From Escherichia phage Turkey5, in the sequence record PQ471516.1: a stretch of 64,000 nucleotides of DNA; one strand, given 5' to 3'. Below are positions 6,822 through 9,652 of the stretch, one piece after another. A model generated the notes under the pieces. That model saw only the letters and a list, made by a program, of their open reading frames with translations, searched no databases and had not been told where the DNA came from. The number at the start of each line of letters is the position of its first letter. The stretch's first letter is position 1. The translations under genes and the position numbers were made by a program.

Positions 6822-6882
6822 GCGAAATTTTTCAGTACTAAATAATATCATACTTTATACGAATATAATATATCTATGGAGG
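6822..6882 (+). promoter_or_regulatory. late promoter/5-prime UTR block (AAATAATATCATACT...ACGAATATAA)
   Basis: about 45-nt block nearly identical to the one at 9590-9652 upstream of the major capsid gene; contains T4-late-like ATAAATA core. Confidence 0.4.
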
Positions 6883-6887
6883 ATATA

Positions 6888-7733
6888 ATGGCGAATTTAA
6901 AACTACTACAAGAAGCAATTGAAGCTTTCGCAAACGGCGAGCAAGATGTTGCAGATAAAAAAATGCGTAAGTACTTTGTTGAGCAAGCTCAAGAAATTAA
7001 CAAAGAACTAGAAGAAAGCATGGAAGACGAAGAAGAAATTGAAGTCAAGGATGAAGAAAAACTTGATGAAGATTTTGATGTACAACCTGATGCTGGCCTA
7101 AACTCTGAAATCGAATTCGCTCTCGGTGAAGAAGATGAAAGTGCTGAAGCTGAAGTCGAAGAATTTGGTTCTGAAGACGATGGCGAAGTTGAAGTTGGTG
7201 CTGAAGAAGAAGTTGAAGGTGAAGAAGGTGGTGTTCCTTCCGAAGATCAATGGGAATCCATTCAAGATGCTTTCCGTGGCCTACAAGACATGTTTGATGA
7301 AATCGGTGGCGATGTAGACGTTGACCTAGACTCTGAAGAAGAAGTTGAAGGAGATGTTGAAGAATTCGGTGCTGATGGTGAAGAAGCAGAAGACGAATTT
7401 AGTGATGTTCAATTCGGTGAAGAAAAAGTTGGTGAATCTTTCAAACTAAAACCAGTAGCTGGTGTTGATAAGAAAGAAAAAGCTGGTGCTAACACCAAGT
7501 CCCCAGTGGCTGGTCAAGCAAAATCTCCAGTAGCTGGCGTAGAACCAGTTAAATTCGCTAAAGCAACCGAAAAACAGGTTGATTACGATTTTGAGAACGA
7601 AGATGCAATGTCCCATAAAGACGAAGATCTAGGTAAAAATGCTCGTGGTGAAATGAAAGACGTTAAAGCACCTAAAGTTGCCGCTGCTGCGAAAAGTCGC
7701 TCAGTACTACCAAAATCTCAACCAAAAATCTAA
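6888..7733 (+). CDS. highly acidic prohead core/scaffold-like protein (gp68-like by position)
   Basis: Glu/Asp-rich 282-aa ORF with KSPVAG tandem repeat near C-terminus; ATG 6888 preceded by tggagga SD. Confidence 0.55.
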   Translation: MANLKLLQEAIEAFANGEQDVADKKMRKYFVEQAQEINKELEESMEDEEEIEVKDEEKLDEDFDVQPDAGLNSEIEFALGEEDESAEAEVEEFGSEDDGEVEVGAEEEVEGEEGGVPSEDQWESIQDAFRGLQDMFDEIGGDVDVDLDSEEEVEGDVEEFGADGEEAEDEFSDVQFGEEKVGESFKLKPVAGVDKKEKAGANTKSPVAGQAKSPVAGVEPVKFAKATEKQVDYDFENEDAMSHKDEDLGKNARGEMKDVKAPKVAAAAKSRSVLPKSQPKI

Positions 7734-7764
7734 CAATAAATAACAGAAAGAAGGAGATCATTAT

Positions 7765-8385
7765 ATGAGTATGATTCGTGAATGGTCTTCATTCAATGAT
7801 TCTAATATTGTTCTGGAACATCGTGATAACGGATTTGGCGGTCGTGATTGCTACCTACGTGGTATTGCAATTCAGGCCGACCAAAGAAACTTGAACGAGA
7901 GAATTTACCCTTTATCTGAAATTACGAAGGCCGTAAATAATATGGGTCAACGTTTAGCTAAAGGGGAAAGCATTCTAGTAGAATGTGACCATCCAGAAAC
8001 ATTAACCATTAACCTAGACCGTGTAGCTGCAATGATTACAAAAGTCTGGATGGAAGGTGCTAATGGTATGGCAGAAATCAAATTGCTTGATACTGCTCAT
8101 GGTCAAAATATTCGTAAAATGCTAGAGGCTGGCGTAAAACTTGGTGTCAGTTCACGCGGTTCCGGTAACGTAGATTATAATGGAATAGTTTCTGATTTTG
8201 AAATTATCACTATCGATATTGTTGCTCAACCTAGTGCTCCAGAGGCATACCCAACTGCGGTATTTGAATCTCTAATGAGCAAGTACGGATCACCTTGTAA
8301 TAGTCCTAAAAAAATCAATGAATCTAAAACAGTAAATAATGTAGATTCTGAAATTTACGATTTTTTCAAGAAATTAAAAGGTTAA
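7765..8385 (+). CDS. gp21: prohead core protease (gp21-like)
   Basis: 206-aa ORF with strong SD gaaggag; located between core proteins and scaffold as in T4; contains GVSSRGSG segment. Confidence 0.6.
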   Translation: MSMIREWSSFNDSNIVLEHRDNGFGGRDCYLRGIAIQADQRNLNERIYPLSEITKAVNNMGQRLAKGESILVECDHPETLTINLDRVAAMITKVWMEGANGMAEIKLLDTAHGQNIRKMLEAGVKLGVSSRGSGNVDYNGIVSDFEIITIDIVAQPSAPEAYPTAVFESLMSKYGSPCNSPKKINESKTVNNVDSEIYDFFKKLKG

Positions 8386-8395
8386 CATTTTAAAA

Positions 8396-8429
8396 ATATA
8401 AATATCTGTATGTTGAAGTACAGATATTT
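8396..8429 (+). promoter_or_regulatory. hairpin with embedded TATAAATA late-promoter core
   Basis: aaatatctgta/tacagatattt 11-bp stem; TATAAATA at 8396-8403 overlaps left arm; upstream of scaffold gene. Confidence 0.35.
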
Positions 8430-8452
8430 CAGTACTTAAAGGAGAGAACAGG

Positions 8453-9568
8453 ATGTCTAAATTAGAAAAGCTTCTAAAAGAATCATCACTTTCTGATGAG
8501 GCAAAACAGCTAATTCAGGAAGCATGGAATGAAGAAAAAAATACACTTGCCGCAGAAATGCGTGAAGAAATGAAAGGTCGATACAAACAAGATTTGTCCG
8601 AGCTAACCGAAGGTCTAAATACTATGGTTACTCAAGTTATCGCTGAAGAAATGGGTGCAGTATATGATGAGAAAAAACGTCTTGTAGAAGACCGTGTAAC
8701 TCTTCGTAAAACCCTAGGTAATTTCTCTCAGTTCGCAAACTCTGTATTGGCTGAAGAAGTCAAACAACTACGTAAAGAACGTAAACATCTAAGAGAAAGT
8801 ATGGGCAAATTTGTTAATTTCTCAAACGGTATCTTAGCTGAAGAACTAAAAGAATTCCACGTGGAAAAACGTCAACTAGTAGAAACTCGCGTAAAACTAC
8901 TTGCTGAAGGTTCCCGTCAAATTGCTGAAGCACGTAACAACTTCATCAAACGTACCTCTGAAAGTGCTGCTAAATACATTGCAGAAACAACTCAGAAGAA
9001 CCTATACGCTTTGAAACAAGATCTTGTTGAAGCAAAACAAAATATGTTTGGTCGTAAAATTTTCGAAGCATTTGCTCAAGAATTCCATATCAAACAATTT
9101 AACGAGAATTCACTTCTACGTTCCCTAACTGAATCAGTTAAGTCTAAAGAAGACGAAATTGCTCAAGTTAAATCTGAACTAAATGAATCTGTTGCTGCTG
9201 TTAAAGCTGCGAAAACCAAACTCCGTATTATGGAAGATACTCAAACCCGTAATGCAATTATGTCCGAGTTGGTGAAGCCACTAAATACTCAGCAAAAACA
9301 AATTATGGAATCCCTTCTAGCTACTTCTCCTACAGAAAAGCTTAAAGACGATTTCAGCAAGTACCATAAGTCAGTACTTAACGGTACTAAAGTAAATGAA
9401 TCTGCTACCTCTCGTCAAGCAGTTCAGTCTTCAGCTAAGAAAACTCTTGCCGAAGGTAAAGTAATCACTGGCAACCGTCAGGCTATTGTTGAAAGCGAAG
9501 AAATGACCGCTGACGATATGGCATTCCTAAAAGAACTCGATGTTCTTTCTGGTATCAATAAAAAATAA
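8453..9568 (+). CDS. gp22: prohead scaffold protein (gp22-like)
   Basis: 371-aa Glu/Lys-rich coiled-coil-like protein immediately upstream of major capsid gene. Confidence 0.6.
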   Translation: MSKLEKLLKESSLSDEAKQLIQEAWNEEKNTLAAEMREEMKGRYKQDLSELTEGLNTMVTQVIAEEMGAVYDEKKRLVEDRVTLRKTLGNFSQFANSVLAEEVKQLRKERKHLRESMGKFVNFSNGILAEELKEFHVEKRQLVETRVKLLAEGSRQIAEARNNFIKRTSESAAKYIAETTQKNLYALKQDLVEAKQNMFGRKIFEAFAQEFHIKQFNENSLLRSLTESVKSKEDEIAQVKSELNESVAAVKAAKTKLRIMEDTQTRNAIMSELVKPLNTQQKQIMESLLATSPTEKLKDDFSKYHKSVLNGTKVNESATSRQAVQSSAKKTLAEGKVITGNRQAIVESEEMTADDMAFLKELDVLSGINKK

Positions 9569-9589
9569 ACATTTTAAAGCATTTTAATA

Positions 9590-9652
9590 ATCAATCTTTT
9601 CAGTTCTATAAATAATATCATACTGAAAAACGAATATAACATCTTTAAGGAG
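9590..9652 (+). promoter_or_regulatory. late promoter (TATAAATA at 9607-9614) plus conserved 5-prime UTR block
   Basis: exact T4 late consensus TATAAATA 46 nt upstream of MCP start; block repeated at 6822-6882. Confidence 0.45.

Follow-up and report, generated by a model that had tools for sequence, protein, structure and literature searches.

Probable T4-type late promoters and paired promoter-leader cassettes before two unrelated head genes of the Rak2-like Escherichia phage Turkey5

In the head module of Escherichia phage Turkey5, two genes unrelated to each other, encoding an acidic virion protein and the major capsid protein, are preceded by strikingly similar non-coding blocks. What are these blocks, and why is the same arrangement found twice? 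The question was addressed in a window of 64,000 nucleotides (nt) of this phage (sequence record PQ471516.1), in which the two blocks are located within positions 6822-9652. By megablast and blastn, the window belongs to the genus Asteriusvirus, among the Rak2-like jumbo myoviruses. Its nearest record is Escherichia phage vB_EcoM_JNE01 (98% identity), and other sampled Asteriusvirus phages, such as 121Q, PBECO4 and BF17, are 87-91% identical to it; the remoter relatives include RaK2, GAP32, CBB, phages of Yersinia, Serratia, Erwinia and Xanthomonas, a Vibrio phage and Pseudomonas phage PA5oct. On the basis of PHROG assignments, the locus is a T4-like head module consisting of the portal gene (4722-6485), a small gene (6560-6787), the acidic virion protein gene (from 6888), and the prohead protease (7765), scaffold (8453) and major capsid protein (9660) genes. 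The two blocks are quite probably T4-type late promoters of this jumbo myovirus, present in an extended variant and carried by a duplicated promoter-leader cassette.

A reading of the letters without database searches, hereafter the sequence-only reading, had recognized a nearly identical block of roughly 45 nt before the two genes. The repeat is real and its length was understated: the complete spacers, from the upstream stop codon to the start codon (106 nt before the acidic gene and 97 nt before the capsid gene), can be aligned with 80 of 113 columns identical, whereas the segments compared at the outset, 6822-6882 and 9590-9652, account for 47 identical columns out of 64. The exact runs common to both cassettes are TAAATAATATCATACT (16 nt), ACGAATATAA (10 nt) and TTTTCAGT (8 nt). 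The local alignment score of the two blocks is 76, against a mean of 19.7 (standard deviation 3.2, maximum 38) in 300 shuffles. When overlapping tandem sites and the promoters of paralogous gene copies are left out, this pair also obtains the top score (73; median 21) among all late-promoter regions with non-paralogous downstream genes. The two cassettes are organized as follows.

6795-6825, plus strand: weak terminator-like hairpin, followed by a T-run at 6829-6833; it lies 3' of the gene 6560-6787 and is the 5' part of the acidic-gene cassette.
6838-6850, plus strand: predicted late promoter of the acidic gene, with the box CTAAATA at 6838-6844, the melting segment ATATC at 6845-6849 and the predicted start site (+1) at A 6850.
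6850-6890, plus strand: leader of the acidic gene, with a predicted length of 38 nt, GGAGG at 6878-6882, ATG at 6888-6890 and a hairpin UAUAUCU/GGAUAUA around the ribosome-binding site.
9566-9607, plus strand: upstream part of the capsid cassette, similar by alignment to the terminator region of the acidic cassette; it does not fold (minimum free energy 0 kcal/mol).
9608-9620, plus strand: predicted late promoter of the capsid gene, with the box ATAAATA at 9608-9614 (TATAAATA at 9607-9614), ATATC at 9615-9619 and the predicted +1 at A 9620.
9620-9662, plus strand: leader of the capsid gene, with a predicted length of 40 nt, A-rich and structure-free, AAGGAG at 9647-9652 and ATG at 9660-9662.

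The start of the acidic gene had been placed at 6876; the most likely start codon is instead the ATG at 6888, which follows GGAGG and is the one annotated in the relatives. The late box of this gene is kept in all relatives compared, and that of the capsid gene in all Rak2-like relatives. The spacing between box and +1 at the acidic-gene promoter was taken from T4 (PMC2988020). The hairpin 6795-6825 is modest in Turkey5 (RNA fold -7.9 kcal/mol, z-score -1.35); at the orthologous spot, Munch, CBB, RaK2, XaC1, the Vibrio phage and PA5oct display clearer GC-containing hairpins followed by a T-run, and the Munch record annotates a terminator at the position orthologous to 6795-6833. As a separate observation, one copy of the palindrome AGTACT is found immediately 5' of the late box of the acidic gene (cagtaCTAAATA).

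Is the box of these cassettes a promoter element in its own right? The motif search was carried to the scale of the genome by means of a 354-kilobase (kb) pseudo-genome in which the window was joined to six pieces of JNE01. ATAAATA occurs in just 52 copies on both strands, and TAAATA and TATTTA are the two rarest of the 64 hexamers composed of A and T only, with 112 and 69 copies; the expectation is 346 by base composition, and 168 and 182 respectively by a Markov model. This general depletion contrasts with a marked local enrichment: 42 of the 99 [A/C]TAAATA sites are intergenic, in a fraction representing 7.6% of the pseudo-genome, which amounts to a density excess of about 9-fold. Most of the intergenic boxes are co-oriented with virion or lysis genes and are located 17-65 nt 5' of their ribosome-binding site and start. 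A box depleted everywhere except before one class of genes is the signature expected of a short promoter element that works without a second specificity element. A position matrix built from 58 candidate sites is in keeping with this: no conserved -35 element exists, the information content being at most 0.24 bits at each position from -20 to -1, G is never found directly after the box, G and C are rare at +7 to +13, and an A-rich position 6 nt 3' of the box agrees with a +1 at T4-type spacing. A consensus scan of 6400-10880 detected no sigma-70-like promoter on the plus strand. The canonical 8-mer TATAAATA was tried as the motif unit and discarded, as it is not enriched (4 sites against 6.6 expected); the unit is the 7-mer [A/C]TAAATA.

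All six further ATAAATA sites listed by the sequence-only reading are present, before the genes starting at 6560, 7765, 8453, 12575, 12924 and 26348, and late-type sites absent from that list were found at 1828 (minus strand), 2467, 55675 and 57667. By PHROG, the other genes downstream of late boxes in the window include portal, tail fiber and baseplate hub genes, and outside the window, in JNE01, they include those of the tail sheath, the tail tube and a spanin. The boxes within the window that precede these and other genes are the following.

1822-1828, minus strand: late box before the baseplate hub gene 947-1783 (minus strand).
2467-2473, plus strand: late box before the virion structural gene 2507.
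6488-6494, plus strand: late box ATAAATA before the small gene 6560-6787.
7736-7742, plus strand: late box before the prohead protease gene 7765.
8397-8404, plus strand: late box TATAAATA before the scaffold gene 8453, with the ATAAATA core starting at 8398.
12540-12546, plus strand: late box before the T5orf172-domain gene 12575.
12886-12892, plus strand: late box before the tail fiber gene 12924.

The similarity of the two cassettes extends beyond this 7-mer, and the extension recurs elsewhere. The core of the block had been said to occur twice in tandem on the minus strand; indeed, the 12-nt sequence TAAATAATATCA is found there exactly, at 22095 and 22158, before the gene starting at 22054. 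The window contains exactly four copies of it (6839 and 9609 on the plus strand and the two minus-strand sites), and a copy with one mismatch at 26313 on the plus strand. Allowing up to one mismatch, 7 matches are obtained in the window against 1.6 expected, a number reached in none of 100 shuffles. In the pseudo-genome, the exact 12-mer has 5 copies (0.4 expected), none of them in coding sequence and each oriented like the late gene it precedes; the genes concerned are those of the acidic head protein, the capsid protein, two paired virion proteins (preceded twice, in tandem) and an Rz-like spanin. Copies with one mismatch are found before the tail tube gene and the gene 26348. The pair of virion proteins corresponds to the paralogous genes 21455-22054 and 20762-21439 (both on the minus strand), and the gene 26348-27643 encodes a further virion structural protein. 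The corresponding promoters are listed below.

22158-22170, minus strand: predicted distal tandem late promoter of the virion-protein gene 21455-22054, with the box at 22170-22164 and the predicted +1 at 22158.
22095-22107, minus strand: predicted proximal tandem late promoter of the same gene, with the box at 22107-22101 and the predicted +1 at 22095.
26312-26324, plus strand: predicted late promoter of the virion structural gene 26348-27643, ATAAATAATATTA, with one mismatch to the extended form.

A general downstream consensus of late promoters was ruled out, since nothing past the 7-mer is kept among the approximately 58 candidates except the A-rich +1. The extension therefore does not define the regulon, and ATATCA marks a small subclass of about 5-8 promoters. 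In T4-type geometry the ATATC segment falls between the box and the predicted +1, and would thus be promoter DNA and not leader.

The tandem arrangement on the minus strand is itself conserved. In JNE01, BF17, PBECO4, RaK2 and CBB, the ortholog of gene 21455-22054 has two boxes in front of it, 60-70 nt apart, and between these five phages only the tandem boxes are kept, the flanks being different. The proximal promoter is followed by one more element.

22079-22093, minus strand: stem-loop GCAGGA...UCCUGC, starting 2 nt past the proximal predicted +1 (fold z-score -2.66).

Its stem of 5 base pairs is kept in five lineages, with two compensatory pairs in RaK2 (GCAGG/CCUGC changed to GUAAG/CUUAC), whereas the sequence and the length of the loop vary freely. 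The position of the stem agrees with the inferred proximal start site. In Escherichia coli mRNA, 5'-terminal stem-loops of the ompA type stabilize transcripts. The leader of gene 21455-22054, opening with a covarying stem of 5 base pairs, resembles them, which suggests a stabilizing 5' stem-loop; the leaders of the acidic and capsid genes differ in having no such stem. In the same neighborhood, the divergent intergenic region between 22054 (minus strand) and 22480 (plus strand) is longer in the window (431 nt) than in JNE01 (264 nt), which is otherwise 99.5% identical; the additional DNA of about 167 nt (approximately 22200-22390) overlaps a doubtful open reading frame (ORF) at 22114-22377 on the minus strand.

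The downstream part of the cassettes raises a different question, namely whether a leader is conserved beyond the promoter core, as the sequence-only reading had suggested. This holds in part only. The leader of the capsid gene is conserved above the level of synonymous sites. The common downstream leader part is limited to the acidic and capsid cassette pair and does not extend to the whole regulon; it is structure-free, and its ACGAATATAA element is not kept in sister phages. Both leaders are A/U-rich and end with GGAGG or AAGGAG located 5-7 nt before the ATG. Across genera, the segment of the capsid cassette from box to ATG is more conserved than the 4-fold degenerate sites of the capsid gene, as the comparison of Turkey5 with four relatives indicates.

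121Q: box-to-ATG identity 0.98, 4-fold site identity 0.77.
Munch: box-to-ATG identity 0.92, 4-fold site identity 0.72.
CBB: box-to-ATG identity 0.81, 4-fold site identity 0.66.
XaC1: box-to-ATG identity 0.83, 4-fold site identity 0.67.

From genus to genus, the cassettes retain the box, (C/T)ATA(C/T) at +1, an A-run, ATCT with a T-run, and the ribosome-binding site. The ACGAATATAA element of both window leaders recurs in the tail sheath leader. It is missing from the acidic-gene leader of sister phages (121Q ACGAATGTAA, BF17 ATGAATGTAA, A4 AGGAATTAAA) and, in other genera, from the capsid leader (Munch ACGAAAAAAC, CBB GCAAAAAAAT), and was for this reason not treated as a functional element. 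The related candidate ACGAATATA(A), proposed as a leader element common to the acidic, capsid and tail sheath genes, was dropped on the same grounds of non-conservation in sister phages and other genera. A structured leader was also rejected. Single-sequence folds are no better than those of shuffles (acidic-gene leader -4.4 kcal/mol, z-score -0.56; capsid leader -1.8 kcal/mol, z-score +0.82), RNAalifold gave no consensus structure for nine capsid leaders from different genera, and an Rfam search of the leaders returned no match. Of 11 relatives, 9-10 have the hairpin of the acidic-gene leader unchanged, without covariation, and it is absent in RaK2 and the Vibrio phage. The identity of the two leaders within a genome is 0.66-0.80, compared with 0.59-0.81 for leaders across genera (0.59-0.75 outside Asteriusvirus). 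From the aligned leaders, this likeness within genomes suggests a shared constraint or occasional gene conversion.

Which of the two cassettes came first? Among 80 uncultivated relatives recovered with the capsid protein, a late-boxed spacer of 63-98 nt between the scaffold and capsid genes is present in 14, all of them with at least 72% capsid identity. In the remaining 66, as in PA5oct, this spacer is boxless and only 4-34 nt long (median 22). The acidic-gene cassette, with its terminator and box, is present even in PA5oct (TATAAATAATATAC) and in the Vibrio phage, and in CBB-type phages the capsid cassette resembles the acidic-gene cassette without the hairpin. Being confined to the Rak2-like subclade, the capsid cassette looks derived from the older acidic-gene cassette. 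The simplest reading of this distribution is that the acidic-gene cassette is ancestral and that, in the ancestor of the Rak2-like subclade, a copy of it was inserted into the scaffold-capsid spacer. The capsid gene would thus have gained a strong late promoter of its own by cassette duplication in one subclade, a small example of the spread of a regulatory module. A different case is seen in JNE01, where positions from about 31700 to 43000 of one piece (293.7-305 kb of the record) carry, on the minus strand, nine genes of similar size (343-447 amino acids). At least two of them have near-identical cassettes made of a terminator and a CTAAATA late promoter (pair score 153), and this run suggests that promoter cassettes were duplicated along with the genes they serve.

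A T4-type late promoter calls for a late sigma factor, and the sequence-only reading had pointed to possible homologs of gp55 and gp33 outside the window. A gp55-like gene was found in JNE01; gp33 was not seen among the ORFs scanned. The former, located at 144313-145152 of JNE01 and approximately 4.6 kb to the left of the first base of the window, encodes a protein of 279 amino acids matching phrog_12791 "sigma factor for late transcription" (E 1e-150) and phrog_234 "late sigma transcription factor" (E 1e-16). BLASTP against T4 gp55 gives 25% identity over 121 amino acids (E 8e-4, as a single comparison), and the N-terminal motif KPK..Y[LV]NN.[DE]LL is common to both proteins; the support for this sigma homolog consists of the PHROG profiles and the direct BLASTP comparison. 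The gene adjoins the gp47 and gp46 homologs, just as gene 55 of T4 is near gene 47, and is preceded in JNE01 by a middle-type promoter TGGAAC-N17-TATAAT. The proposal of a T4-late-like regulon is well supported at the level of sequence by this gp55-like gene, the co-orientation of the boxes with the structural and lysis genes they precede, their intergenic enrichment and the lack of a -35 element. Another protein deserves mention in this context. Directly 5' of the DNA polymerase gene, 14748-15047 (plus strand) encodes 99 amino acids matching phrog_639 "transcriptional regulator" (E 1.9e-8) and no Pfam or NCBIfam family; it may correspond to the DsbA/GapR-like accessory protein of late transcription that has been considered in group 2 jumbo phages (PMC7824862).

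The preferred mechanism can be described as follows. The box [A/C]TAAATA, at the -10 position and without -35 element, would be read by the core of the host RNA polymerase carrying the gp55-like sigma factor of the phage, and transcription would start at the A located about 6 nt 3' of the box. In TAAATAATATCA, the box would be followed by the melting segment ATATC, A/T in all positions but one, and by the A at +1. This extended form would serve late genes whose products are heavily needed, namely the acidic head protein, the capsid protein, virion proteins, the tail tube and the Rz-like spanin. The two blocks of about 100 nt would be paralogous cassettes, each composed of a terminator or its remnant, a T-run, the box, the +1, an unstructured A/U-rich leader of about 40 nt and a strong ribosome-binding site. 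Copying of the cassette would have given the capsid gene its own promoter, and the two copies would have been kept alike by selection for high expression, by gene conversion, or by both. The motif statistics and positions, the conservation, the existence of the sigma homolog, the lack of RNA structure and the phyletic distribution of the capsid cassette are observations; the initiation sites, the late timing, the form of the polymerase and the strength of the promoters are inferred.

Several points weigh against this reading. No published start-site data were found in the literature for Asteriusvirus or other Rak2-like phages; the RNA-seq paper on PA5oct reports sigma-70-like promoters only, and promoters are not discussed in the papers on RaK2 and Sharanji. 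The ATATC segment differs at the proximal tandem site of sister phages (ATATT in BF17, ACTTT in PBECO4), and is therefore favorable and not essential, and the extended form looks strong solely from the genes it precedes. The sigma gene was observed in the closest relative JNE01, 98% identical, and not in the window itself. The gp55-like protein has no match in Pfam, in NCBIfam or in a PDB sequence search, which makes its homology to gp55 distant. Unlike T4 gp55 (185 amino acids), it contains an insertion of about 115 amino acids, and the C-terminal clamp-binding motif of the T4 type (SLDFLY) is not evident in it. Unlike in T4, no member of the gp33 or gp45/clamp families was found among the 10 ORFs of the replication module in the window, and the stretch of the 121Q record inspected (1-42 kb) carries no sliding-clamp annotation. 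The gp33 protein is small and evolves fast. For CBB, its authors likewise reported a gp55-like protein (CBB_244) and found neither gp33 nor gp45 (PMC5259590). Since no gp33 or gp45 homolog was found, the activation mechanism may differ from that of T4, and the way in which a gp55-like sigma factor with no recognizable gp33 or clamp partner switches on late genes is the main point of some interest.

Other explanations of the paired blocks have to be weighed against the T4-type promoter cassettes. The extended similarity could be functionless, a neutral trace of duplication or gene conversion in which nothing but the 7-mer box and the ribosome-binding site counts. The absence of general constraint outside the box in the position matrix, the non-folding terminator remnant kept in the capsid cassette, the apparent origin of this cassette as a derived insertion and the duplication of other late-promoter cassettes along with paralogous genes all speak for such a trace. 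It is nevertheless unlikely. The capsid cassette is old, being shared by Asteriusvirus, Mimasvirus, Eneladusvirus, Alcyoneusvirus, the unclassified Xanthomonas phage XaC1 and the Vibrio phage, and its leader continues to change at a lower rate than 4-fold sites. Moreover, the exact 12-mer also occurs within different flanks at the unrelated spanin and tandem virion-protein promoters, which argues for selection on the extended box over descent of a long block. A promoter of another type, either host sigma-70 or phage middle, is hardly credible. A perfect TATAAT does lie at 6864-6869, inside the acidic-gene leader and within ACGAATATAAT, and TGGAAC-N-TGnTATAAT promoters are used by the phage elsewhere. 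This hexamer is however not conserved (TATAAC in the capsid leader, TGTAAT in 121Q), neither TGGAAC nor a -35 element is found upstream, the downstream genes are those of the virion, and the consensus scan detects no plus-strand sigma-70-like site in either block.

The function of the blocks could also reside in the RNA. The common leader (ATACT...ACGAATATAA...ATCT...GGAG) would then be a sequence-specific element, either the binding site of a translational activator or repressor, of phage or host origin, or a processing or stability signal, that co-regulates the most abundant virion proteins at the post-transcriptional level. The conservation of the capsid leader above synonymous sites across genera is compatible with this idea, as are the greater likeness of the two leaders within genomes than of leaders across genera, the possession by the phage of its own IF3 homolog, and the presence of ACGAATATA in the acidic, capsid and tail sheath leaders, for which about 0.01-0.03 occurrences would be expected in approximately 2.3 kb of leaders by our estimate. 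Such an element is quite unlikely all the same: ACGAATATAA is lost in the acidic leaders of sister Asteriusvirus phages and in the capsid leaders of other genera, no consensus structure, covariation or Rfam match was obtained, and the need for an A-rich, unstructured leader of high translation explains the conservation equally well. A more specific version, in which this leader and that of the tail sheath gene are recognized by a translation or RNA-binding factor of the phage, a common requirement that would keep the cassettes alike, with the IF3 homolog as one candidate, is highly speculative; if true, it would mean a privileged late translation of the most abundant virion mRNAs by way of a recognized leader. 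The IF3 homolog itself is encoded at 56570-57070 on the plus strand of the window (TIGR00168 infC, E 2.6e-28; phrog_9787) and is annotated in 121Q and Sharanji too.

The T4-type promoters proposed here can be compared with known systems. In T4, the late box TATAAATA, served by gp55, gp33 and gp45, is located about one helical turn 5' of the +1, with an A/T-rich melted segment and no -35 element, and A replaces the first T of the box at nine late promoters (PMC2988020). The jumbo phage shares with T4 a single A/T box at -10, the lack of a -35 element, the A/T-rich melted segment, boxes before virion and lysis genes on either strand with strong counter-selection elsewhere in the genome, and a gp55-family sigma gene beside the gp46 and gp47 genes. 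It differs from T4 in the first T of the box, which is not conserved here, the 7-mer [A/C]TAAATA taking the place of the unenriched 8-mer. The closest precedent is in the same clade. Buttimer et al. (2017) predicted ATAAATA as a late promoter at 35 sites in CBB, and also in GAP32, and likened it to TATAAATA of T4 (PMC5259590). This "promoter 3" (PMC5259590, Table S7), defined as 14-nt sites by MEME, has the same motif, including CTAAATA, the same association with structural genes and a gp55-like protein, CBB_244. As the motif had already been predicted for CBB and GAP32, the regulon reading is not new for this group of phages. With respect to the parts of PMC5259590 and its Table S7 consulted, the additions are the extended TAAATAATATCA subclass, the long paralogous cassettes, the tandem promoters with their 5' stem-loop and the derived capsid cassette. 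These results do not overturn current understanding and are largely ordinary. They provide a late-promoter map of the Asteriusvirus head and tail module that can be used for annotation, for the prediction of transcript units and for the design of late-expression cassettes in jumbo coliphage engineering.

Mobile cassettes combining a promoter and a stem-loop (PeSLs) were reportedly described in T4-type phages by Arbiol, Comeau and Krisch in 2010. Like them, the cassettes of Turkey5 are modules of stem-loop and promoter repeated before unrelated genes, and such repeats are said to be possible substrates of recombination. PeSLs are reportedly early and numerous, whereas the present comparison reveals two long copies only, with what appear to be late promoters.

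Downstream of the capsid gene, the layout of the module is marked by a further signal.

10881-10905, both strands: strong bidirectional intrinsic terminator, ending the head-gene transcription unit 3' of the capsid gene.

Directly 3' of the capsid gene lies an HNH endonuclease gene (10944-12170), with its own near-consensus sigma-70-like promoter (TTGACG-17-TATAAT, 10892-10920) overlapping this terminator. The near-identity matches of nearly all relatives end just past the capsid gene (at about 10840, and at about 10920 in JNE01 and UE-S1), so that the HNH gene has the appearance of a homing-endonuclease insertion; at this location RaK2 and PA5oct carry other endonucleases. The large terminase gene (24674-26315, plus strand) is split into two overlapping ORFs of 106 and 445 amino acids by a 1-nt insertion relative to 121Q near 24935, which falls in the Walker A region (QMGKTT changed to QMRKNN...). 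This split may reflect a sequencing error, a pseudogene or a site of frameshifting.

Some oligonucleotides have unusual frequencies in the pseudo-genome. The AGTACT palindrome has 998 copies against about 119 expected by base composition, an excess of about 8-fold, and 136 of them are in the window; they are spread over coding and non-coding DNA, often in the form of CAGTACTG. CAGCTG (1 copy against 36.5 expected) and GGCACC (1 against 22.8) are almost absent. A second class of promoters, TTTTGGAAC-N13-(A)TGATATAAT, with an extended -10, precedes replication genes at 14652-14683, 27718-27749, 43882-43913, 60630-60661, 33003-33035 and 37888-37920. It agrees with the "TGAAACG + TATAAT" class described in CBB and GAP32 (PMC5259590), and a promoter of the same type is located 5' of the gp55-like gene of JNE01.

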